NCBI GenBank assembly: GCA_021498095.1
Contig: JAIZWK010000001.1
Span: 2,400,001 to 2,432,000 of the forward strand
Source of the DNA: Candidatus Harpocratesius repetitus
GTDB lineage: Archaea > Asgardarchaeota > Lokiarchaeia > Sigyniarchaeales > Promethearchaeaceae
DNA: 32,000 nt
Direction: 5' to 3'
Made by a program: the position numbers and the translations under genes. Positions within the stretch are counted from its first letter, which is position 1; each line of letters opens with the position of its first letter. Shown in pieces: positions 2,071 to 14,788 of this stretch. The notes under the pieces are model-generated. The model saw only the letters and a program-made list of their open reading frames with translations. It ran no database searches and was not told the origin of the DNA.

Positions 2071-2520
2071 TTAGAGGATTGAAAGTTTTCCGATGATATA
2101 TCTTCGGTGTTGAAAAAAATATATAATATTTTCTGTTTTTTTACTTATTATCAATAAAATAACCCAATTAATATTTCCATAGATTGGATTTTTGATCATA
2201 GTTTTAATTGACAATTTGTCAATAAATGAAGCAGAATCAGGACCATGAGGATGCGTATGCCATTCCCCAAGATAATCTGTATCTGGATTTCGCTTAATAG
2301 ATTCAATTAATTCAGGATAAATGTGCTCTGTGGATCTAAAAACACCAAATGGTGATTGAGAGATTGGATTTTCATCCTCGATAATATCTGTTATACGATA
2401 TAATTCATTATTAATTTTTTTTCCTACTAAGATTCCACAACGTTCTTTTTTGTAATTTTCATACTTTACATCTCTAAAAAATCGATTATATAATTTCTCT
2501 TCAATTTCAACTTCGATCAT
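2071..2520 (-). CDS. cap3: JAB/MPN+ metallo-isopeptidase, CBASS Cap3-like
   Basis: ERCGILVG (catalytic E) and YLGEWHTHPHGPDSASFID (HxH...S..D). ATG at 2520 overlaps the end of the E2-E1 gene; the track start at 2529 is a GTG. Confidence 0.9.
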   Translation of the reverse strand: MIEVEIEEKLYNRFFRDVKYENYKKERCGILVGKKINNELYRITDIIEDENPISQSPFGVFRSTEHIYPELIESIKRNPDTDYLGEWHTHPHGPDSASFIDKLSIKTMIKNPIYGNINWVILLIISKKTENIIYFFQHRRYIIGKLSIL

Positions 2521-4180
2521 TTTCACCACAAATCGGACATTCTTGCCATTTCGAAAAATTTTGAATTTTGATCATATTTGGTTCTTCAAATATCCAACCT
2601 TGGTAATTTCCTACTAAAAAATGATCATAATCGACCGGTTGAAAGAAATTCTGAAGATTTATTTTTTCAGCGAGTGTTTGGAATGCGAATCGTACAATCT
2701 TGTTTGCAATTTCTTTAATATCTAAATTAATTCCTGGAATTCCCGATTGGTGATATAAATCTTTTTGATGTTGTTCAAAAACCATACTGGGAAATTTGTC
2801 TGGATAAATATCTATTTGGTGATTAATGCAGTTAAGACATGGAGAGCCATCCTTTACTCGAAATATTCTTCCGAAACGGGCATTTTTCAAGCAAGTCCCA
2901 AATATCAAAGGTACATTATTCATTACACAAACTTCATTTAATTCATATTCATCCAATTCATGATCTATGGTAGAAATGACAAGATCGGAATCTTTTAAAT
3001 GAGTAAAGAACTCACTACGCATCATTGGATTAAATGGGGATCCCTTATATGCAGAAACTGAAACTTTGGGAGATAGAAAATGAGTAAATTCTTTCATGGC
3101 AAAAGCTTTTGGGAGACCTAAATAGGGAAGTGGCATGAAATTTCGCATGACGTTTTCAGGTTTGTATATATCAGGATCATATATTACAATATTCTGAATT
3201 CCATTGTGAATTAGTTCTTCATAGACTTTTGAACCCAAGGAACCTAATCCGATTAAAATAATTTTTATTCTTTTTATATTCGAAAATTGAGATTCTTCAA
3301 TATTTTTCTGCCGTTTATACAAAAGATCATAAAATCCCTGATCAGAATCAATAGTTGAATAGAAATAATCACTTAACCTAAAATTTCTATTCCAATGGAA
3401 GAATATAAGAGGAAATTTATTTTTAATTTTAGAACATATCAATAAATCGTCACTAAGTTCATTATTGATAAAAATATCATAAGAATCTAATAAAAGGTTA
3501 ATATTTTCACTCTTTTGAGAGACAATTCTTTCAATAAAAGTTTCATAATTTCCATGAGATAATCTTACGATTTTTAATGGTCTTTTTCTCAATTCATTAA
3601 ATTTTTGAGATTTTTCATCAATAAAAAACCCATAGATTATTTGGAAAGGAAGAGTTGAGAATTCTTCAATAGAAAAAGCATGATAATATATTATATCGAT
3701 GTTTTCATTATAAATTCTATCATATATTCTTGGATTGATAAAATATTTTTCTTTGACTGCATAATCGTCAAGATTATAATTAATTGACGTATGTTCTTCG
3801 GATAATTTTCCAGTATATTTTAAATCAATATAATTCTTAAATTTCTTTAAAACCATATCAAGTCGATAGGAATCTGTCCACGCGGATTCGCCACTGTCTC
3901 TCGGAAAAAGACATATACTAAAATCTTGGAAATAATGACCTTTCCAGAAATCAGTAATTGCTAATTTAGAGTAATTTTCATTAGTATAACAAAAAAATTT
4001 GGGAGGAAACGCAGGATATAATGGATGATAAACTATATCAAAAAAAAATTGATGAGATCCATATTTATAATTACCTCGCCATGCTCTCAAGATTGATTTG
4101 TATTCTAGTGAAAATTCATCATTTTCCTCTAGAAATTGTTTAATAACGTCTTGATCTTCTTCAAAAACTATATTATCCAT
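2507..4180 (-). CDS. cap2: E2-E1 (UBC-like + ThiF-like) fusion, CBASS Cap2-like
   Basis: N-terminal E2 motifs LYPAFPPKF, GHYFQDFSICLF (Cys codon 3911-3913) and downstream W. C-terminal ThiF motifs IILIGLGSLGS, VIYDPD, ENVMRN and two CxxC (PCLNC, ECPIC). Lies between a CD-NTase and a JAB gene. Confidence 0.9.
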   Translation of the reverse strand: MDNIVFEEDQDVIKQFLEENDEFSLEYKSILRAWRGNYKYGSHQFFFDIVYHPLYPAFPPKFFCYTNENYSKLAITDFWKGHYFQDFSICLFPRDSGESAWTDSYRLDMVLKKFKNYIDLKYTGKLSEEHTSINYNLDDYAVKEKYFINPRIYDRIYNENIDIIYYHAFSIEEFSTLPFQIIYGFFIDEKSQKFNELRKRPLKIVRLSHGNYETFIERIVSQKSENINLLLDSYDIFINNELSDDLLICSKIKNKFPLIFFHWNRNFRLSDYFYSTIDSDQGFYDLLYKRQKNIEESQFSNIKRIKIILIGLGSLGSKVYEELIHNGIQNIVIYDPDIYKPENVMRNFMPLPYLGLPKAFAMKEFTHFLSPKVSVSAYKGSPFNPMMRSEFFTHLKDSDLVISTIDHELDEYELNEVCVMNNVPLIFGTCLKNARFGRIFRVKDGSPCLNCINHQIDIYPDKFPSMVFEQHQKDLYHQSGIPGINLDIKEIANKIVRFAFQTLAEKINLQNFFQPVDYDHFLVGNYQGWIFEEPNMIKIQNFSKWQECPICGENDRS

Positions 4181-4192
4181 CTTATAACCCTG

Positions 4193-5062
4193 TTATGCAA
4201 ATCGAGTTCCCGGAGAATCAGGTGATAGACGTGATTTTCTATTTCTGTTCTGATTGCGATAATTTGAATGAAAATCTGCTGATTTTTGGCGGAATATCTC
4301 TTTCCAACCTTCAATAATATCTAAATTTTGAGATAAAGCCCAAGATGCTGCGTCTTTACACTTTTTTTTTTCATAAGAAGTTGCTACATCTGCAATATTA
4401 TTAGATGAATTTGCAGGATCTTCAATTCGACATGTATCAATTGACGTTTCTAAGAATTTAAAAATTTTTTTTAATCCCTCATCAATGCTAATGTATGTAT
4501 CTTGAATTATTTCTATAGAAATCAATTCAATTAAAAAGCTTGGAATATCGATATTATTACGTACTTTCCATAATTTCATCAATTTTAAGAGATCTCTTCT
4601 ACGAAAATCACGAATCACCTTTATATGAGTCTTAACATTTGTTTTTAATGGACTGTCTTCTTTAGATCTATAAATCCAAGCATTGTCTTCATTTGAGCTC
4701 GATCTTTTTGCTGGAACAAGATCGATATGATAACCTTCACGTTTATTTATTCTCAAGGCAACATTTTTTTGTATAATGGACTGTTCTTTTCCCCGAATAA
4801 ATTTTAACACTTCAAAATATATTTCCCTTAGAGATTTTTGTTCTTCAGATGGAAAATACAATAATAAGTCCATATCATATGATTCTCGGATCATTGTTTT
4901 TTTTCCATACGAACCACCCCAATAATAGGTTGGTGTTTTTAGATTCTCTATTGAATTAATGATTCCTTCGTATTTTTCCCGATCATTTTGCATTTCCTTT
5001 TTAAAATTATCGGGAATTTTCTGTTGAATGATTAATTCCTTCAAATATTCAGTTATTGTCAT
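4193..5062 (-). CDS. CD-NTase (cGAS/DncV-like, SMODS) paralogue 1, with disordered C-terminal tail ending PGTRFA
   Basis: GGSYGKKTMIRESYDMDL (GS...DxD), YHIDLVP (third Asp), LMKLWK, EDPANSSNNIA (OAS/CD-NTase-type C-terminal motif); AAGGAG upstream; 12 bp before the E2-E1 gene. Confidence 0.9.
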   Translation of the reverse strand: MTITEYLKELIIQQKIPDNFKKEMQNDREKYEGIINSIENLKTPTYYWGGSYGKKTMIRESYDMDLLLYFPSEEQKSLREIYFEVLKFIRGKEQSIIQKNVALRINKREGYHIDLVPAKRSSSNEDNAWIYRSKEDSPLKTNVKTHIKVIRDFRRRDLLKLMKLWKVRNNIDIPSFLIELISIEIIQDTYISIDEGLKKIFKFLETSIDTCRIEDPANSSNNIADVATSYEKKKCKDAASWALSQNLDIIEGWKEIFRQKSADFHSNYRNQNRNRKSRLSPDSPGTRFA

Positions 5063-5100
5063 TTAAAATTCTCCTTATGGTCATTAACTAATTATACTAA
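5063..5100 (-). promoter_or_regulatory. Upstream region of CD-NTase 1: AAGGAG RBS plus TAGTTAATG element shared with paralogue 2
   Basis: + strand CATTAACTA at 5082-5090 and 6138-6146, each 20 bp from the respective ATG (5062, 6118). Confidence 0.5.
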
Positions 5101-5201
5101 TTTATATTTAAATATACAGTAAAGAGAAAAAGTAAATTAATTTAAATGTGAAACAACCAGACAGATCGATCAGAATTGATTAGAGATTATCTTTACTTTT
5201 T

Positions 5202-6118
5202 TTAAAAAAACCTTTTTAATAATTTAATACCCAGTATTTCTGCTCCAACTTTTAGAGCGAATTTGAAAAAATCATTATATCTCGTATTCTCATATTCCGG
5301 TTGATTATGTTCGATTTTAGCAAGTGGTTGATCTTTTTTTCGAAATACTTCCTTTCAACCTTCAATAGTCTGTAAATTCAAAGATAAACACCATTCTGCA
5401 ATATTTTTTGCCTTTTGCTTCTCAATAGGATCAGATACTTCATCTGCTACGATGTTGTTCGAAGCATTAGCTGGATCAGGAATATTTCATGATTCAATTC
5501 GACTCGCTATAAATTGGAATACATTAATTAAGCCATCTTCCAACCTGATTCTTTCATCTTGATTCATATTGATAGTAATAATTTCAACTAAAAAACTCGG
5601 AATATCAATATTGTTTCTATATTTCCACAATTTAACTATTTTTAATAGGTCTCTTCTCCCAAAATCACGTACAATTTGAATTTGTTTCTCTACAATTGTA
5701 GTTAATCTTTGTTTTTCCTGAGATTTATATAGATATGCCATTGATTCGTTTGTACTTGATCTTTTCGCAGGTACAATGTCAATATGATATCCTTCACGTT
5801 TTTCAATTCTAATAGCAATATTCTTTTGATATGCATTAGGTTCAACGAAAAGTATATAATCTTTAACAATCATATAAATCTCTTCCAAAAGATGAGGATC
5901 ATCAAAAGGAAAGTTGCATAAAATATCAATATCATATGAACATTTAATCAGTGTTTTTTTCCATATGATCCCCCCCAATAATAACTAGGACGAGATAATT
6001 CTTTGATTTGATTATTTAAAATTTCAAAATAGTCTCGATCTTGACGCATTTCTTTTTGTTCTTTTTTGCTGATTTTTTATATTTTTACTAGTTCTTTTAG
6101 ATAATCGGTAATTGCCAT
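5202..6118 (-). pseudogene. CD-NTase paralogue 2, tandem duplicate of paralogue 1, inactivated
   Basis: Manual translation from ATG 6118: MAITDYLKELVKI* (TAA at codon 14); 1-nt loss in the A-run of GSYGKK (A7 vs A8 in paralogue 1); TGA at 5487-5489; TGG>TGA in IEG*KEVF; frame ends ...GAEILGIKLLKRFF* at 5202. Track ORF 5487-5978 is its middle fragment. Confidence 0.9.
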
Positions 6119-6199
6119 TTCAAATCATCTAATTAGCCATTAACTATATATAATAATCGTTCTTTAAAAATATCATCATTAAACAAAGAGAAAATATTC
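6119..6199. promoter_or_regulatory. 81-bp divergent promoter region between CD-NTase 2 and the HNH-SAVED gene
   Basis: Palindromic TATATATA at 6145-6152 (27 bp from ATG 6118) and TTTAAAAA about 30-37 bp upstream of ATG 6200. Confidence 0.4.
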
Positions 6200-7351
6200 A
6201 TGTCAAAATATCCAACTCCTGCTACTAAGCTTAAAATTACAGCCGATCATGGTGGAAAATGTGCGCTGTGTGGTTTAGGAGGAAAAAAGGTTTATACCAA
6301 TTCAAAAGAAGAAAACCAGTTGGATTCATTTAATATTGGACAATTTGCTCACATTTATTCTGAAAATGAAAAAGGACCGCGCTATGATAAGAAGATTCCA
6401 GAGTCATTTCTTGCTTCTAAAGAAAATTTCTTGCTCTTATGTACAAATCATCATAATTATATTGATCAAAATGTGAAAAAGTTTCCCGCTAAAAAATTGA
6501 AAAAAATTCGAGAAAATCATGTTGGAAATGTAAGAAAACGTTTGGATTTGAAGGTAATAGAAAGAGTGATTATTATCTTGTTAAGGGATGACTACTTTGG
6601 AGGATTGAACACCAGTACCATTCAAAATACTCTTTCTGAAAGTGAAGTAGTTGTTAATTATTTAGATTTTCGAACGCAAACCCAAAATTCATCTGAAATT
6701 CCATGGCAAGAAGGTTTTCAATATTATACTAATAAATGGAATGAGTTTAAGACAGATTTCTTTGAAGATTTGAAATCCTCGATAGACTGTTTTCATATTT
6801 ACGGTATCACTCAAATTCCCTATGTATTCTTTTTTGGATTGTTTTTCAATGATACCCCAAAATTATTTGCTCATCAATGGAATCGAGAAAAAAATAAATG
6901 GGAAGGTTTTTCTGAAACGGCTCAAAATGATGTTTTCACATCCTCAATAGAAATTCACGATACAAAGGATATAATTCTAAAAATAGAATTATCGTCAAAA
7001 ATCAATAACAAAATAATTGAAAAATTAGGCTTGAATCTGAAAAATCAAGCCTCCCTTCAAGTAGAAGATCCTTCTCGAACTTGGTTAAAATCAATTAACC
7101 AAACAGAATCATTCTTAAATCATTACAGGAATTTGATGGATGAAATTAAAGAACGATTACCAGAATCGGAAATTCATCTTTTTTATGCCGGACCTGTTCC
7201 ACCTTTATTCCATATGGCTTCTGCTTATAATCCCCGAATGGATCGACCAATAAATATTTATTATTATTTTGTCAATCCTGAAACTAAACTCTCAGAATAC
7301 AAATTTGTATTTAATTCTGTAGAGATCATGCAAAAATACAATTTTCTTTAG
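6200..7351 (+). CDS. cap5: HNH endonuclease-SAVED effector, CBASS Cap5-like
   Basis: GGKCALCG...IGQFAHIYS...GPRY...NFLLLCTNHHNYID (Zn-HNH); C-terminal SAVED-type IHLFYAGPVP; flanked by CD-NTases. Confidence 0.88.
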   Translation: MSKYPTPATKLKITADHGGKCALCGLGGKKVYTNSKEENQLDSFNIGQFAHIYSENEKGPRYDKKIPESFLASKENFLLLCTNHHNYIDQNVKKFPAKKLKKIRENHVGNVRKRLDLKVIERVIIILLRDDYFGGLNTSTIQNTLSESEVVVNYLDFRTQTQNSSEIPWQEGFQYYTNKWNEFKTDFFEDLKSSIDCFHIYGITQIPYVFFFGLFFNDTPKLFAHQWNREKNKWEGFSETAQNDVFTSSIEIHDTKDIILKIELSSKINNKIIEKLGLNLKNQASLQVEDPSRTWLKSINQTESFLNHYRNLMDEIKERLPESEIHLFYAGPVPPLFHMASAYNPRMDRPINIYYYFVNPETKLSEYKFVFNSVEIMQKYNFL

Positions 7352-7370
7352 AGTAGCAAATCTCCAATTC

Positions 7371-8138
7371 TCATCTCTGTTTCTTAAAGATCTCACCCCA
7401 ATATGTGCGATTTAATGCTTGATATGCTTTCTGCTCAATCTCCTTTTTTTCTCTGGAAGTTAAATTATCAGTCACAATATTCTGTTTATTTGCGGGATCA
7501 TAATATTCTCGATCGCAAATATTTCGAGCGATATATTCTAAACATGTTTCTAATTGGATAGAAAGAGAAGTTCTTGTTATATTCCAACAAGCTAAATGAA
7601 CCATGATTTCGAGTAAGAATGTAGAGATAGGAACGTTTTTCCGGAATTTCCAGAGTTTTAGCAGACGAATTACATCTCTTCGATTATATTTCTCAATTTC
7701 ATTGATATGTCGATTTAAACTGGTTCGTAAATATTGTTCCGTTTCAGAATTATAGAGATAAGAATAATCCGGATCGTGGGAATCTTGAACAGATGGCACA
7801 ATATCCACATGAAACGTTTTATTGTATGGCAAACACCATGCCACTTTCTTCTTAATTATTTTATTCCATTCTAAATGAAGTGCATCTTCAACTTGATAAA
7901 AAATCTTTTTTATATCCCCAAAATTAGGTTCCCAGATGAGAAACATATCTAAATCATGATATTCTTTAATCCAAGTATTTTTCTTGAATGATCCAGCCAT
8001 AAACATACTTGGATGTCCGCCAATAGAGTCATTAATGCATCTTCTGATCCGATCTCGCAATTTTAACATACTATCAATTTGAGATTGAGCTGGGTGACTA
8101 TTTCTTAAAACCTTGTTGAGGAATTCTTCGTCATTCAT
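7371..8138 (-). CDS. CD-NTase paralogue 3 (255 aa, no C-terminal tail)
   Basis: AGSFKKNTWIKEYHDLDMF, FHVDIVP, LLKLWK, YDPANKQNIV; ends WGEIFKKQR. Confidence 0.88.
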   Translation of the reverse strand: MNDEEFLNKVLRNSHPAQSQIDSMLKLRDRIRRCINDSIGGHPSMFMAGSFKKNTWIKEYHDLDMFLIWEPNFGDIKKIFYQVEDALHLEWNKIIKKKVAWCLPYNKTFHVDIVPSVQDSHDPDYSYLYNSETEQYLRTSLNRHINEIEKYNRRDVIRLLKLWKFRKNVPISTFLLEIMVHLACWNITRTSLSIQLETCLEYIARNICDREYYDPANKQNIVTDNLTSREKKEIEQKAYQALNRTYWGEIFKKQR

Positions 8139-8304
8139 TTTTATTCTCTTATATTCTTTTCACATGATGAATATGTGGATTCCAACTATTACTATCGCGA
8201 TTGATGTGTATACAAGAATGGTATATATTAATTGAAATATTAATAAGAAAAAACTTGCATTATTTTTTTGGTAATTGCATTATTTATTGAGTTTTACACA
8301 AATC

Positions 8305-9426
8305 TCAAAGGTTTTGGAATACAAGACAATAATGATGGTGAACGTTAGAAATATAGGTAGTTGGATAACCCCAGATTCCCATAAATTTCTGATCCTGACA
8401 CCAAATAAATTCTTGTTTTAGAGATAAGTTCTTTCCAAGGATTTTAGCAAAATCCCAAGCGACTGGTCTCATATTACCTTCTTTATCGCGAATGTTTTGT
8501 AATATAATAATGAAATAACCTTCCTTTTCTACAATTTGAGAGATATTTGAGAATATTTCGCTTAAATTATTTAAATACTTATCATAATCATCAATATTAC
8601 CAAAATCCTTTTCATCATCGCTATATTTCTCATCAAAACCTTGTTCAACCCTCTGTTTTAAAGCAGATTTTACACCTCCTCTTGATGTTCCTAGCATATT
8701 CCAGTAAGGTGGTGATGTAACTACACATTTCATCTTAGGTAACTTCATTTCTTTCCATATTTTAACAGTATTTCGACAATCATCATTGATAACGATATAT
8801 TGTGTTTTTGACTCTTCTTTATTAAAAAATGAATCTAAAGTTTTTTGATTGTCAACAGAACGCTTTTGTGCATAAGAAGCGTATTCCGGATTTAATTCTA
8901 TGCCGAAACAATTTCTATCTAAATCTCTACAAGCAACTAAAGTCGAACCAATTCCAAGAAATGGATCAAAAACCCAATCACCTTCTTTTGAAAAAAATTC
9001 AATGAAATGTCGTGCAAGTGCAGGAGGATAACTTGCAGGATGATTTTTAATTTCTTTAGGAATATCTGAAGGTTTTCCATCTACTATAAGCCAACTCTTT
9101 GTATGTCTTAACCATTCTTTACCTGTTAGATTGTTTAAAGAGTTTCTTTCATCATATTCCCCTTTTTTTTCACATTTATATTGAATTTCTCTTGTTTCTT
9201 TAGCCAAAAGACGAAACAGTTTAGCACTATTAATAAAATCCCCTTTTTCAAAAAGTTTTCTAGTTTCATTTACTAAATCGAGTATTTCATTATTCTTTCT
9301 ATTAATTATATCTGAAGAATTGCTTTTAAAATTAGGATTTTTATCAATCTCATCAAGAATTTCTTTAGGAATAACCCATCTTTTTTGTTTTCCTTTCTTT
9401 TTAGAATTCAACTGGTTTTCACTCAT
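8305..9426 (-). CDS. DNA amino-methyltransferase (probably m4C), circularly permuted motif order
   Basis: HPASYPP, DPFLGIGST (motif I), GIELNPEY, then VTSPPY (motif IV); start overlaps the upstream gene's stop (ATGA, 9423-9426). Confidence 0.88.
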   Translation of the reverse strand: MSENQLNSKKKGKQKRWVIPKEILDEIDKNPNFKSNSSDIINRKNNEILDLVNETRKLFEKGDFINSAKLFRLLAKETREIQYKCEKKGEYDERNSLNNLTGKEWLRHTKSWLIVDGKPSDIPKEIKNHPASYPPALARHFIEFFSKEGDWVFDPFLGIGSTLVACRDLDRNCFGIELNPEYASYAQKRSVDNQKTLDSFFNKEESKTQYIVINDDCRNTVKIWKEMKLPKMKCVVTSPPYWNMLGTSRGGVKSALKQRVEQGFDEKYSDDEKDFGNIDDYDKYLNNLSEIFSNISQIVEKEGYFIIILQNIRDKEGNMRPVAWDFAKILGKNLSLKQEFIWCQDQKFMGIWGYPTTYISNVHHHYCLVFQNL

Positions 9427-11075
9427 AATTCATCCCATGTTTGTCCGCTAAAATAGACAATTCTTTTGTTTATTTGAATTTTTATAGAACTACATTTTTC
9501 TATCACATTTTTATCGACCAAATCTTGATAAATTGTGTCTTCTTCCGTCAATTGCATTGGTAAATCTTGAATTTTTATCGTTTTTCCAAAATTTTCATTA
9601 ATTTTTCTATATAAGGATATTTCTTCTGCACTTTTACTTGTCACAGGTATATATGTTGTTTCATTTAATTTTGATAGATATTCTTTTCCTTTTTCAGTAA
9701 TTCCTACTATGGATGTAATTTTGTACCCTCTACTTATAATTTCAATTGGATCAGATAAATTATTTGGTATTTTATCTATACTTTCGACATTATTGGATTT
9801 TTTCCACCCTTGTGTTTCAAGATCAATTAATCCGATTGTAAAAGCCCAACCAAACATCCTTCTTGTGAAATTGTTTACTCTTTTCTTGTATTTATTATAT
9901 GTGAGAGGAATATAATCTTTAGTTTTATTGTTCCAAATAATATATTTTTTTTGCAAAATTTTGTTAATTTCTTTAATCCTTTGTTTTTTATTCGGTATTT
10001 CCAATAATCTTTCAACTCCAATCAAAGCATTTCTTAAATTTTCAGGTGTTTCCTGCAAAGTAGTTAGAATATAAAAACCTAAAAGATATTGATGAATTGA
10101 AATATTATAACCTTTTTTTTCAAGCTCATTAAGAATCCAGAGCATGATGTAAAAGGGTCTAGCTTTCATATACATATATTCGGAATAATTTGTTAAATCT
10201 TGCTCACAATTAAAAATACCATAATTTACTATCGATTCAGTTAATAATCGTCGTCTTTCCTTTTCTTTTTGCGAGATATTTTCAAGAGATTCGTAATTAT
10301 TATCAATAAAATTTCCATCACAGATAATTTCCCCCTTATTTGTAATTTTATAAGAGTAATTAAATGTACCCCCTGATTCGCTTACTTCTCTCGTTTTAGA
10401 CACTAATCCAATATAATTGGCAAAATCAAGGGAATCCCTTATTTCTTCTTTTGAACCGCGCTTAGTCTTCGAAGATGCTCTTGGAATAAAACTTATGGGA
10501 ATATCATAAGTGATTTGTTTTAGTAGAGATAAATTACTTGATATATTACTTATGGTATTGTTATTCATACAAAAATGGGAAATTAATCTAAAAAATGCTT
10601 TAGATTCATATGCATTTTTAGGAAAATGCAAAAATGCAAGATTTACTCTTTTATCTGTGTTCTTTTGCCTATATCTTGGCATATATAGTACTTCAAAAGG
10701 ATTTGTATATTCAAAAGAATTAAATTTAAAATTATTAAAAAATTTACATATTTCAGAATATATAAACGGAGGAAGTGCATCTTTTTTAATAATTGTTTCA
10801 ATTGGAGTATAAATTCTACGAACTATTGCGAAATTTTGAGTTTCTTCTTCCCAACAAACAGCATACAAATATTCATAAGTCTTTGATCGAAGTTCTTTTC
10901 GAATTTCTTTTATTTTTTCGCTATTAATAATATTCGTTGATTTTGATATTACTTGTTCATTAAAATCATTCAATTGTATTATATTTCCATTAGTTGGAAA
11001 ACCCTTCTTTTCAAAAAATTTAATTAAATCATCAGAGGATTTTATCATTTTAAATTTTATTTCTCTCACCTTCAT
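9423..11075 (-). CDS. 550-aa hypothetical protein with repeated winged-helix-like segments; candidate DNA-specificity subunit
   Basis: Two helix-GL[VI]...IT.KG segments (DFANYIGLV...YKITNKG; FGWAFTIGLI...GITEKGKEYL) and RPFYIMLWIL, reminiscent of FokI/AlwI-type recognition domains; TAATG overlap with helicase gene; no PD-(D/E)xK or HNH motif recognised. Confidence 0.55.
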   Translation of the reverse strand: MKVREIKFKMIKSSDDLIKFFEKKGFPTNGNIIQLNDFNEQVISKSTNIINSEKIKEIRKELRSKTYEYLYAVCWEEETQNFAIVRRIYTPIETIIKKDALPPFIYSEICKFFNNFKFNSFEYTNPFEVLYMPRYRQKNTDKRVNLAFLHFPKNAYESKAFFRLISHFCMNNNTISNISSNLSLLKQITYDIPISFIPRASSKTKRGSKEEIRDSLDFANYIGLVSKTREVSESGGTFNYSYKITNKGEIICDGNFIDNNYESLENISQKEKERRRLLTESIVNYGIFNCEQDLTNYSEYMYMKARPFYIMLWILNELEKKGYNISIHQYLLGFYILTTLQETPENLRNALIGVERLLEIPNKKQRIKEINKILQKKYIIWNNKTKDYIPLTYNKYKKRVNNFTRRMFGWAFTIGLIDLETQGWKKSNNVESIDKIPNNLSDPIEIISRGYKITSIVGITEKGKEYLSKLNETTYIPVTSKSAEEISLYRKINENFGKTIKIQDLPMQLTEEDTIYQDLVDKNVIEKCSSIKIQINKRIVYFSGQTWDEL

Positions 11076-14000
11076 TATTTTCTAAAAATTATCATGGATT
11101 TCATTTCTAATTTAATATCATCATGCTTAAGTAATTTTGATGTGTATTGGGAAAATTTTTCGGTTTGATTTTCTAAAAACGCATCAAATTTTTGTATTTC
11201 CGAAAGAATTTTATATGGATTTGCAGGGGGATTTTTATTTTTATATTTTTCAATTAATTTATTTAAAATATCTCTATATTCATTAAGTATTATCTTATTC
11301 ATAGAAAATGAAAGGAAAAGATGGAATTTTTCCCATAATTTTTTCTGCGCTTGTTTTACTGATTCAATATTGGTAGTATTTAAGAAATCTGTCATTCTTG
11401 GATAAAAATACTTTTTCACTAAAGTGTTTAATTCCGTTTTTTTATTTTCGATTGATTTTTCTTTAACTGTATATTTCAAACTATACTTTTTTATGATTTC
11501 TTCTTTTTCACTTTTAAAAATCTTTTTAATTTTTTCTAGATCAAGATAATCTTGTTCGGATAGTTTTCTATCTTTATCTTCTTTATCTTCTTTATCAAAA
11601 TTAATTAAATCATAAATCTTGATAGATTCATCATTAAAGGAATAACTCTTCTTTATATTATAGTAGAAATTTTTTAAAAATTGTTCGGATTGTAAATAAG
11701 TAATAACTTTAGCATTGAGATCTGATTTAAAAATAGTAAAATATTTCTTTCGATATTTTGGAACGAACAGATCTCTAAGCTTAATACCAAAAACATCTGT
11801 CATTTTTATTAGGAATTTGTCTAAATTACTAAATCTTAGGGCAATATCTTCAGAATTTTCTTGTTGGAAAGATAGATCTGTAATCTTTTTTATTTTATTT
11901 ATAATTTCACACATGCTATCTCTTTGATTTTGTATTATATCTAATTGTTCTTCAAGTGTAAGAATACAATATTCAGTCCCTATTGCTAGGGCTATATTCT
12001 TTATTTTTGATTTGACTTTTGTTAAAAACCTTTCGAGAAATTCAATATTATTATCAGGAATGAAATTTGCGACAAATATATCCTTAATATTAGTAATTCG
12101 ATCAACTCTTCCAATTCTTTGAATCATTTTTACAGGATTCCAAGGAATATCATAATTAATAACCCAATCTGCTTCTGGGATATTGAACCCTTCGCTCAAT
12201 ACATCAGTAGAAATTAAAAACTGATTTTTTTTTTCCATTTTAAATAATTCTAAAACATTAAAACGCTCAGGTTTAGATAATGCTCCGGTTATCAATAAAG
12301 AATTTTCTATGTTATCATGTAGATAATGTGCAGTATCTGCATATTGAGTGAAAATTAGGAATTTAGTATCTGAATGTTTCAAATTGTATCCTTCAAATTT
12401 AATCAGTAATCCTGGATTCGAAAGGAATGTTTTTAACAAGAGTATTTTTTCATCAATTTTGAAAACATTTGATAGTTTCATTCTTTTTTCTTTATTAATT
12501 TCTTGCTGGAAGTTATTTTCTTTAAAAACTAAATAATTTAAGATATTTAGGATATAATCGTATTTATCAAGAATTTTATCAAAATCAGTTAATTTTTTAA
12601 TAGTATTTATAATTTTTTCCATTTTTTTCTTAAAGTTATCATTATTTTCTCTGATTTCTGATAAAATATTCTTATACCCGCTACCTAATATTAATTCTAT
12701 TAAAAATAATTCATTATCAATGAAATAATATATTTTATCATCTGAAATATTTTTAATATTAAATAGCATATTTTTAATTAAATTCAAATCGTAAAATATT
12801 TTAGAGATAACCATAGATAGTTCATCTTCATCTAATTTCAGCAATTCAATCCATTTTTCTGAGATTTGGTTCAAATCAAATTCTTCATTTTCATCTTCTT
12901 TTAAATTAATTAGAATTTTATCTAAAAGGGTCTTCTGTTCTAAAAATTTAATATTTCCATTATCAATATCTTCTTCTTTTTCTTTCTCGTCCTTGCTTTC
13001 ATGAATTCTATAATGAAAAGAAGAGTATATAAAAATTAAAATCGTCATTTCCGACAATAATAAGTTTGATATTGAAGTAAAAAAGGAATAGGGAGAACTT
13101 TCCAATCTTTTTGCTAAAAAAATGTAATAGAATGTGTGAAATTGAGTATCATCTTTTAATGGATCAACATGAGGTAAATTTAGGTCCACAATCATATCTC
13201 TAGTTTCTTTGAAGAGCGAAGAAAATGATGGATTTTGAATTTTGTATTCAAGAGGTTGTAAAATTGGATCTTTTATACTAACATCATTATTTTTTATTTG
13301 ATAATATTCTTTTTTCATCTTTTTCAAATCAAGTCTACTTGTTTGAACAAATAGTGCTTTTCTTATCTTTTTTATTTGTTCCTTTTGAGACAACATAATA
13401 TCTTGATTCATTAAGAGAAATGCTGAAAGTTCATCTTCATTTGTAATTTTCCTCATTGGATTCTCTATTTTTTTTACAAATTCTGATAATTGGTGATATT
13501 CAGCTTCAATATCATTCTGCTTAAATTGATTTTCATCATGGAATATTGATATGATATTATAGATATCTATATAGGAATTATTCATAGGGGTTGCTGTTAA
13601 TAAAATGAATTTCGTCCCAATTTTGGGAATTTTAATCAAATTTTTATAACGATTTGATGTATTGTTTCTAAAATTATGAACTTCATCTATTAAAACCACA
13701 TCATAATGTTTATTTATTTCAAAATCTGAAATTCCAAATGAATACATTGAAATAATATCGATTCGATGGTCTAAAGGTGATATTTGAAACTCTCTTAGAT
13801 AATCTTCCCATTGTTTAATAATCCCTGGTGGTAAAATTAATAAAATTTTTATTTCTTTATAGATCAAATAGTCTGCAAGCAATTTACAAGCGATATAACT
13901 CTTTCCAAGCCCCACTGAACTTGTAATCATAACTCCATTAAAATTCTTCAAAATTTCTTTAGCTCGTTGATAATCTACTTTCTGAAATGGCAATAATTCA

Positions 14001-14788
14001 ATTTTCTCTTCAAGTAAGTATTCTTTGTTCCAATCTAAAATTTGTTGGATTATGAATTTTTTTGGATGAAAATATTTCCATTCTACTTTTTTTTTTTTTT
14101 TTTTAAATTTCGGTGTTGATTCGATAATTCGCAAGATTTTATCATTATAGTCTTGTGAAGATTGCCACAATTCATGAAAATAATTTGTTAGCCACTGATT
14201 CTCTTCCTTAGAATTAAAAACGGCATTTAATTCCACATTAGTTCTTAAACCTGATGTAGATAAATTAGAAGAGCCGAAAATCCCTTTATCATCTAAAGTA
14301 CCACCAAATTCTTCAGGTAAAACCCTATGAAATAAATATAGTTTTGTATGAAGTTTAGATTGGTCAAAAATTTTCACTTTTATTATCCCATCTTGAATAT
14401 TTTCGTAAAATGAGATTAATCCATCAAAATTTTTATCTGATAATGAAATGATTTCATCTTTAATCTTAGAATACAAGGTTTTACTATTATACCTAGGAAT
14501 ATGAGAATATTTCAATGTCGATTTTGTAAGTTTATCGGTGTGATCTCCGATAATCAATAAAAATGGTGCTGAAGTTCCATAAAGTTCGATATAAGATTCA
14601 TTATCGATACGATTTAAATTGATTTTTTCATATATTTCATTATAACCGGATAAAAAAAAGAACCCAGTTGCAATTTTCACTTCTTTACAACCTTGTAAAT
14701 ATTTTTTTATCACATCCCCTAATTTGATTTTTCTATTATCGATAAAAGTTGGAATATCAATTAATTCAGAATTTACTTTTGAATTCAT
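11075..14788 (-). CDS. PLD-family nuclease fused to SF2 (SNF2-related) helicase/ATPase, 1237 aa
   Basis: LHTKLY and GSSNLSTSGLRTNVELN (PLD); SSVGLGKS (Walker A), LIDEVHNFRN, LLTATPMNN, IFTQYADTA, STDVLSEGFN, NYDIPWNPVKMIQRIGRVDR. Confidence 0.9.
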   Translation of the reverse strand: MNSKVNSELIDIPTFIDNRKIKLGDVIKKYLQGCKEVKIATGFFFLSGYNEIYEKINLNRIDNESYIELYGTSAPFLLIIGDHTDKLTKSTLKYSHIPRYNSKTLYSKIKDEIISLSDKNFDGLISFYENIQDGIIKVKIFDQSKLHTKLYLFHRVLPEEFGGTLDDKGIFGSSNLSTSGLRTNVELNAVFNSKEENQWLTNYFHELWQSSQDYNDKILRIIESTPKFKKKKKKVEWKYFHPKKFIIQQILDWNKEYLLEEKIELLPFQKVDYQRAKEILKNFNGVMITSSVGLGKSYIACKLLADYLIYKEIKILLILPPGIIKQWEDYLREFQISPLDHRIDIISMYSFGISDFEINKHYDVVLIDEVHNFRNNTSNRYKNLIKIPKIGTKFILLTATPMNNSYIDIYNIISIFHDENQFKQNDIEAEYHQLSEFVKKIENPMRKITNEDELSAFLLMNQDIMLSQKEQIKKIRKALFVQTSRLDLKKMKKEYYQIKNNDVSIKDPILQPLEYKIQNPSFSSLFKETRDMIVDLNLPHVDPLKDDTQFHTFYYIFLAKRLESSPYSFFTSISNLLLSEMTILIFIYSSFHYRIHESKDEKEKEEDIDNGNIKFLEQKTLLDKILINLKEDENEEFDLNQISEKWIELLKLDEDELSMVISKIFYDLNLIKNMLFNIKNISDDKIYYFIDNELFLIELILGSGYKNILSEIRENNDNFKKKMEKIINTIKKLTDFDKILDKYDYILNILNYLVFKENNFQQEINKEKRMKLSNVFKIDEKILLLKTFLSNPGLLIKFEGYNLKHSDTKFLIFTQYADTAHYLHDNIENSLLITGALSKPERFNVLELFKMEKKNQFLISTDVLSEGFNIPEADWVINYDIPWNPVKMIQRIGRVDRITNIKDIFVANFIPDNNIEFLERFLTKVKSKIKNIALAIGTEYCILTLEEQLDIIQNQRDSMCEIINKIKKITDLSFQQENSEDIALRFSNLDKFLIKMTDVFGIKLRDLFVPKYRKKYFTIFKSDLNAKVITYLQSEQFLKNFYYNIKKSYSFNDESIKIYDLINFDKEDKEDKDRKLSEQDYLDLEKIKKIFKSEKEEIIKKYSLKYTVKEKSIENKKTELNTLVKKYFYPRMTDFLNTTNIESVKQAQKKLWEKFHLFLSFSMNKIILNEYRDILNKLIEKYKNKNPPANPYKILSEIQKFDAFLENQTEKFSQYTSKLLKHDDIKLEMKSMIIFRK
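14087..14104 (-). repeat. In-frame A18 homopolymer (T18 on +) encoding KKKKKK between PLD and helicase domains
   Basis: 18 consecutive T at 14087-14104; codons about 229-234 (TPKFKKKKKKVEW). Confidence 0.9.

Follow-up and report, generated by a model that had tools for sequence, protein, structure and literature searches.

A probably chimeric CBASS island of a Lokiarchaeial genome with a Cap2-tailed cyclase, a tail-less cyclase and a cyclase pseudogene that has lost its tail

We analysed a stretch of 32,000 nucleotides (nt; hereafter the window, whose coordinates are used throughout unless another locus is named) from contig JAIZWK010000001.1 of Candidatus Harpocratesius repetitus. It harbours a Lokiarchaeial cyclic oligonucleotide-based anti-phage signalling system (CBASS) island, in an Asgard host, whose genes have their nearest relatives in the assembly of Candidatus (Ca.) Lokiarchaeum ossiferum. 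Three genes of the island code for cGAS/DncV-like nucleotidyltransferases (CD-NTases, or cyclases), here called P1, P2 and P3, which differ at their C-terminal ends. In an initial annotation, these ends had been read as ...RLSPDSPGTRFA for P1, ...YNDFFKFALKVGAEILGIKLLKRFF for P2 when translated through its lesions, and ...WGEIFKKQR for P3, and we recovered all three exactly as given. The features of the island are as follows (protein lengths in amino acids, aa).

2071..2529, minus strand: Cap3, JAB/JAMM isopeptidase, 152 aa (Pfam Prok-JAB, 1.6e-11; PADLOC JAB, 8.8e-21)
2507..4180, minus strand: Cap2, E2-E1 fusion, 557 aa (Pfam ThiF, 7e-23; PADLOC E1-E2)
4193..5062, minus strand: P1, intact CD-NTase, 289 aa, core at residues 1-257 (PADLOC PDLC00803, 1e-62; Pfam DncV-like NTFase)
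4196..4291, minus strand: C-terminal tail of P1, residues 258-289, comprising a variable, polar linker and then the conserved end SRLSPDSPGTRFA (4196-4234)
5063..5165, no strand assigned: duplicate of the divergent promoter region between Cap5 and cyclase, with a TATA-like TTTAAATA, GGAG ahead of the P1 ATG, and a stub of the Cap5 start
5166..5280, no strand assigned: filler at the proposed joint of two loci, unique in the genome
5202..6118, minus strand: P2, pseudogene of a CD-NTase with four lesions, its last ~12 codons (the conjugation motif) gone in every frame
6200..7351, plus strand: Cap5, HNH-SAVED effector, 383 aa (Pfam SAVED, 4e-24, and HNH_2; PADLOC endonuclease effector, 1e-39)
7371..8138, minus strand: P3, intact tail-less CD-NTase, 255 aa (PADLOC PDLC00803, 3.5e-58 over residues 1-251)

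Cap2 starts 12 nt past the stop codon of P1, Cap3 overlaps the end of Cap2, and Cap5 is the sole effector of the locus. In the PDB, Cap2 matches MoeB, SAE2 and the Cap2 entry 7to3, and the E...HTHPH...S..D motif of Cap3 is complete. The profile PDLC00803 (253 positions) is the best PADLOC cyclase profile for all three CD-NTases, with an E-value of 2e-34 for P2 and a match that spans residues 1-257 in P1. The catalytic GS...DxD...HxD residues are retained in P1, P2 and P3, which places all three among the CD-NTases. At the protein level P1 shares 50% identity with P2 and 29% with P3.

The core of P1 is followed by a polar tail of 32 residues that ends in ...SPGTRFA, and thus in a C-terminal Ala. 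In the AlphaFold2 model of P1, which is weak (mean predicted local distance difference test score, pLDDT, of 65, from an alignment of six sequences), residues 263-289 have pLDDT values below 50. The end of the tail is highly conserved: 12 of its last 13 residues are invariant among four proteins of the tail clade that are only 56-60% identical overall, and R278, P281, D282, P284 and R287 are kept also in a 45%-identical variant (alignment A4). The last three residues, RFA, are those of Enterobacter cloacae CdnD, whose C-terminus is KPAEPQKTGRFA and whose extended, disordered tail enters the E1 site of Cap2 (Ledvina et al., 10.1101/2022.03.31.486616). CdnD ends in ...KTGRFA; the initial annotation had given its ending as ...GRFA. 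The Bacillus cereus cyclase has a flexible tail of 30 residues with the C-terminus KPGGFA. More generally, in 1,583 cyclases whose operons encode full-length Cap2 and Cap3, the C-terminal position is reported to be Gly or Ala; elsewhere it is unconserved (Jenson et al., PMC10097602).

P1 shares one operon with a full-length Cap2 (E2 and E1) and Cap3, the gene content of type II CBASS. Analyses of the genetic environments of its relatives revealed Cap2 and Cap3 genes directly downstream in all five loci with readable context and tails ending in RFA, RFG or RWG (the window, the L. ossiferum locus L001, L032/33, L030/31 and L079), and none adjoining the tail-less relatives examined. Judged by its sequence, the P1 tail is the known conjugation tail of type II CBASS, and its conserved end is presumed, by analogy, to be the site of adenylation and conjugation by Cap2. 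Cap2 would adenylate this end and ligate P1 to targets, and Cap3 would remove it, as in the bacterial systems. The proposal that P1 is a conjugation-regulated enzyme is supported by the Cap2-type tail, the Cap2 and Cap3 genes directly downstream and the near-invariant last 13 residues. A prediction of the complex between Cap2 (alignment A3) and P1 (A4) gave a score of 0.00 in two runs, which had no controls and carry no weight on binding either way.

One of the relatives, P0007 (L030, 2056-2943; the same protein in L031), has a tail ...PDAPDTRWG that continues for five extra residues, YKLKN. Its gene overlaps the start of Cap2 by 41 nt, and P0008 is a near-identical relative of 295 aa. P0007 may represent a pro-form, to be trimmed ahead of conjugation.

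P3 ends in ...IFKKQR, 8 residues past a conserved Trp, with no flexible tail and no terminal Gly or Ala. Its AlphaFold2 model (pLDDT 92) shows a CD-NTase fold with the last helix at residues 247-251, and Foldseek matches it best to CdnC, CdnD and CdnB (E ~1e-11 to 1e-12). In all P3 orthologues (84-85% identity), as well as 15 further members of the clade (55-62%), the chain ends 4-14 residues past the conserved Trp. Nearly all bacterial relatives are proteins of ~250 aa that end right after a W-x-x-[IV]-[FW] motif, in plain pairs of a cyclase and a SAVED effector. The tail-less end is the normal state of the family. P3 had been described as stopping right after the core and interpreted as an unregulated or partner-regulated enzyme; the same end is found in its orthologues and in most relatives, and for P3 this interpretation is acceptable.

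The tails of the family were surveyed in the 150 best of 536 phmmer matches plus the protein P0005, with 149 sequences scored. Sixty-two of these are tail-less and 56 have tails of 13-64 residues, which are of two kinds, ending either in RFA or RFG, or in [KR]-P-W-[A/G/C/S] followed by 0-8 further residues. A stand-alone E2 is encoded downstream in two loci with [KR]PW tails (bacterial L056, 10001-11562, and L077, 4001-5607), which represent type II-short CBASS built on the same short-cyclase core. In E2-only CBASS, the E2 trims the residues that follow the conjugated Gly (10.1101/2022.05.25.493364), and the [KR]PW tails with extra residues beside a stand-alone E2 fit this published trimming. 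The type of tail thus tracks the accessory genes, with no tail in type I systems, RFA or RFG beside Cap2 and Cap3, and KPW, a small residue and up to a few more beside E2 only; this pattern has already been published. Within the family, the RFA-type tail seems to have arisen once, in a single clade. The idea of modular tail swapping on a shared core is consequently borne out in part: across the family, tail type does follow accessory genes, but the RFA tail appears to have been gained once, and the window contains two tail states, not the three that had been proposed.

The third state had been assigned to P2. This gene is a true pseudogene, orthologous to the tail-bearing cyclase of the Ca. 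L. ossiferum assembly. Its lesions are a TAA in place of codon 14 (6077-6079; Gln, CAA, in P1); an A-run short by one A (7 A at 5954-5960, 8 A in P1); a TGA at 5487-5489, where the orthologues have Cys; and a TGA at 5355-5357 that replaces an invariant Trp. Contigs of a public DNA run, which may be from the source sample of the assembly, match the window at 100% over 5319-6300, all four lesions included, and over 5000-5186, with 5187-5318 outside their coverage.

Using the read-through P2 sequence as a query, three intact relatives were found, P0003 and P0004 (73-74% identical), one of which is that of Ca. L. ossiferum, and P0005. P0003 and P0004 end in QSRLSPDSPGSRFA (SRLSPDSPGSRFA), and P0005 ends in SRLSPDSPGTRFA, the same as the P1 tail. 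By maximum likelihood, P2 branches as the sister of the L. ossiferum and L032 genes (support 100), and P1 stands apart from this group, without resolved order beside P0005, inside a tail clade of five rows (support 100). The terminal branch of P2 is 5-10 times longer than those of its sisters, as expected of a dead gene. As it stands P2 ends in ...LKRFF, with no terminal Gly or Ala, whereas its orthologues have one. The intact orthologues end in a P1-type tail, and the present end of P2 is not the ancestral one. We found no such tail hidden in another frame of P2, and the only RLSPDSP motif of the window, in any frame, is inside P1.

The place at which P2 departs from its orthologues is well defined. 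Its DNA aligns with theirs at 77% identity, gap-free from 5962 to 5322, after which the alignment breaks up; at the protein level the similarity can be traced to ...NQPEYENTR, at ~5280. On the other side, the segment upstream of P1 (5063-5150) aligns, in a four-way alignment, with the genuine Cap5/cyclase intergenic regions of P2 and of related loci. The TATA-like box is common to these regions; P1 and L001 also share GGAG ahead of the start codon, which P2 has lost. The next ~17 nt, from 5146 onward, align with the start of Cap5 (ATGTGAAACAACCAGAC vs ATGTCAAAATATCCAAC), and similarity then falls to background. This stub of Cap5, ~17-20 nt long, has an ATG on the plus strand at 5146-5148 and a TGA straight after, and tblastn searches with Cap5 N-termini gave only chance-level matches past its first ~17 nt. 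A blastn alignment joins window 3759-5153 to L001 9315-7908. A segment of ~110 nt separates the Cap5 stub from the point where P2 homology ends, and the odd last residues of P2 and its stop are read from this segment.

The two sides of this joint also differ in their distance from L001, the L. ossiferum locus, which consists of a P3-like cyclase, Cap5, a tailed cyclase, Cap2 and Cap3. Amino-acid identities to L001 are 90% for Cap5, 84% for P3 and 69-73% for P2 on one side, and 58% for P1, 45% for Cap2 and 63% for Cap3 on the other. At the nucleotide level, blastn returns a single block of 83% identity over 5385-8146, and the P1-Cap2-Cap3 side is at 67-74%. For scale, ribosomal protein S3Ae of this genome shares 73-75% identity, and an NTP-transferase 63-65%, with the genus to which a 6.0-Mb closed genome belongs. 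The P3-Cap5-P2 block is thus closer between genera than a ribosomal protein, which points to recent horizontal transfer among Lokiarchaeia.

Together, these features make it highly likely that the locus is a chimera of two related CBASS loci, in which the P1 tail is of the standard type II kind, the P2 tail was lost at the joint and P3 is tail-less by default. The two loci would have been joined at ~5166-5322, one contributing P3-Cap5-P2 and the other, far more divergent, the Cap5 stub, the promoter copy and P1-Cap2-Cap3. P2 would once have had a P1-type tail, whose last ~12 codons were lost at the joint, and it would have decayed after that loss or come already crippled. The events may have occurred in either of two orders: an incoming P1-Cap2-Cap3 cassette could have displaced the resident Cap2-Cap3 together with the tip of P2, or a P3-Cap5-P2 fragment could have displaced the Cap5 resident beside P1. 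Both orders predict the present structure exactly, and either way the P2 tail is lost at the joint.

The best-surviving alternative, although we regard it as improbable, is that P1 and P2 arose by tandem duplication in situ, and that the tail of P2 then drifted by point mutations and small frameshifts without recombination. The two genes are indeed adjacent, on the same strand and 66% identical over 855 nt, and the promoter region is duplicated as well. Nevertheless, P2 is 73% identical to the L. ossiferum gene and only 50% to P1, and the tree separates the two with full support. A Cap2 at 45% identity beside a Cap5 at 90% is unlike one orthologous operon. A duplicated unit of promoter and cyclase would carry no stub of the Cap5 start, duplication would not clip precisely the final codons from the upstream copy, and there is no trace of the tail motif in any frame downstream of 5280.

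Far less probable is the reading in the initial annotation, in which a common core would be under three modes of regulation, one per paralogue, and P2 would formerly have been a membrane-associated enzyme anchored by a C-terminal amphipathic helix. The read-through frame does yield a stretch of 25 residues rich in Lys, Leu, Phe and Ile (5205-5279, minus strand; stop at 5202-5204) whose best 18-mer has a hydrophobic moment of 0.44, and some bacterial CBASS cyclases fractionate partly with membranes. However, this value is reached by 14% of the stop-free six-frame 25-mers of the window, whose DNA has a G+C content of 29%, and by 21% of sequences obtained by shuffling the residues of the tail itself, and is therefore within chance for such AT-rich DNA. 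In an exhaustive phmmer search of 1.84 billion representative proteins with the P2 query P0001, in which the odd tail is residues 228-252, there were 536 family matches, and none of the 150 best aligns past residue 228. The P2 tail accordingly shows neither of the two marks expected of a membrane anchor, amphipathicity above background and conservation among homologues. It begins where DNA homology stops, beside the Cap5 stub, and the orthologues P0003 and P0004 carry a Cap2-type tail. A search for intact orthologues had been proposed as a check of the membrane reading, with their lack of the amphipathic tail named beforehand as speaking against it; they exist, and they lack it. The supposed amphipathic helix is translated junction DNA and no biological feature.

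Least probable of all is that P2 is alive through recoding, with TGA read as selenocysteine or Trp and a programmed frameshift at the A-run: one TGA does fall where the orthologues have Cys, and a slippery A7 run is the site of the frameshift, but the other TGA replaces the invariant Trp, a TAA interrupts the frame at codon 14, the GGAG ribosome-binding site of the orthologues is lost, the branch is long, and four independent events in one gene are implausible. An alternative genetic code or selenocysteine was ruled out for P2 by the TAA, the TGA at the invariant Trp and the frameshift.

Several points weigh against the interpretation of the locus as a chimera with a standard type II tail on P1. 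For the filler of ~110 nt, a search of the genome with 5155-5290 gave only chance short matches, and its predicted RNA fold is unremarkable (z = -0.69). Since the linker is variable even among orthologues, the breakpoint can be placed only within 5280-5322. The disorder of the P1 tail is predicted from a shallow model and from composition, and covalent conjugation of P1 by the archaeal Cap2 is put forward by analogy with the bacterial enzymes. Furthermore, of the two catalytic Cys residues expected of a Cap2, those of E2 and E1, only the former is present in the window protein and its archaeal relatives. The window Cap2 has the E2 Cys in FSICLF, the adenylation loop GLGSLGS and two CxxC pairs, and the E2 Cys (SICLF) is conserved among five archaeal Cap2 proteins (alignment A3). 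No Cys is found between the two CxxC zinc motifs in any of these five, where the bacterial Cap2 of L059 has GCGSLY; the canonical E1 catalytic Cys is therefore absent from the C-terminal part of E1 in the window (2507-2860). The conjugation chemistry of archaeal Cap2 may thus differ from that of bacteria. In E. cloacae, Cap2 with the C548A substitution still makes conjugates in vitro via the E2 Cys (Ledvina et al., 10.1101/2022.03.31.486616). Given that the E1 Cys is dispensable there, its absence weakens strict membership of type II CBASS, not the functional likeness.

The presence of two types of cyclase in one island extends beyond the window. In all eight readable loci, which are all Lokiarchaeia-like (L021, L022, L023, L069, L072, L073, L075 and L001), a P3-type cyclase has another cyclase and a single HNH-SAVED gene as neighbours. 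This second cyclase belongs to a 253-aa, a 268-aa or a tailed type; the catalytic residues are kept in both cyclases, and the second is apparently active as judged from its sequence. The tree of the P3-type proteins mirrors the type of the partner (253-aa, 268-aa or Cap2-tailed). A search of the literature for two-cyclase CBASS found no description in the searchable library. It is conceivable, although we consider it rather doubtful, that Lokiarchaeial CBASS is an obligate two-cyclase system, in which a P3-type and a second cyclase, tail-less or Cap2-tailed, would act on one HNH-SAVED effector, as a heteromer or as two sensors with one signal, with ubiquitin-like priming by a Cys-less E1 for one of them only. 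If so, the decay of P2 would indicate that cyclases are not maintained once separated from their conjugation tail.

Other features were noted around the island. Fifty-nine nt past the stop codon of Cap3, a repeat of 22 nt at 1992-2013 copies, at 91% identity, the DNA of the P3 DxD motif (7939-7960), with NHDLDIILL encoded in its minus frame. Possibly this is all that remains of another cyclase; a tblastn search for a fourth cyclase remnant downstream of Cap3 gave nothing significant. On the opposite side, the island adjoins an operon (8305-14788) coding for a methylase, a protein of 550 aa without family match and a PLD-SNF2 helicase of 1237 aa, and this direct proximity to CBASS suggests that the whole stretch is a defence island. 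The CBASS island of L001 is flanked by a DNA methylase gene (4620-5534) and a near-identical duplicate of its last ~90 codons (11049-11363), which looks like an insertion scar or an attachment-site duplication.

The contrast between the P1 and P3 ends is ordinary, being the published Gly/Ala-tail rule for cyclases of Cap2 and Cap3 operons repeated in an Asgard archaeon. The value of the analysis is mostly corrective, in that the third, 'membrane-type' tail is a recombination scar that does not belong in catalogues of CD-NTase regulatory modules. The locus also provides a clear case, at the level of single bases, of module exchange between Asgard CBASS loci. Lastly, an E1-E2/JAB conjugation module and a conserved substrate tail are present in the archaeal group closest to eukaryotes, with an E1 that lacks the catalytic Cys.

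Among known systems, the E2-only, type II (short) CBASS of Serratia marcescens, CdnG-E2 (10.1101/2022.05.25.493364), resembles the [KR]PW-tailed family members encoded upstream of a stand-alone E2, a tail type that is absent from the window. Type I systems with a PDLC00803 cyclase and a SAVED effector are similar to P3, which is ~250 aa long, ends after the conserved motif and lies beside a SAVED effector; nevertheless, the Lokiarchaeial P3-type cyclase is never alone with the effector (8/8 readable loci). Type II CBASS CD-NTases that Cap2 conjugates and Cap3 releases include Vibrio cholerae DncV, E. cloacae CdnD and the B. cereus cyclase (10.1101/2022.03.31.486616; PMC10097602; 10.1101/2023.09.29.560134). 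The window departs from these in its Asgard host, in a Cap2 without the E1 catalytic Cys, in a cyclase core that is unusually small (~255 aa, with CdnC, CdnD and CdnB as nearest folds at 14-18% identity), in an effector that is transcribed divergently and in a second, tail-less cyclase in the same island. It agrees with them in the order cyclase, Cap2, Cap3, in the adjoining HNH-SAVED effector and in the flexible P1 tail of ~30 residues with its hydrophobic-Ala end, RFA as in E. cloacae CdnD and FA as in B. cereus.

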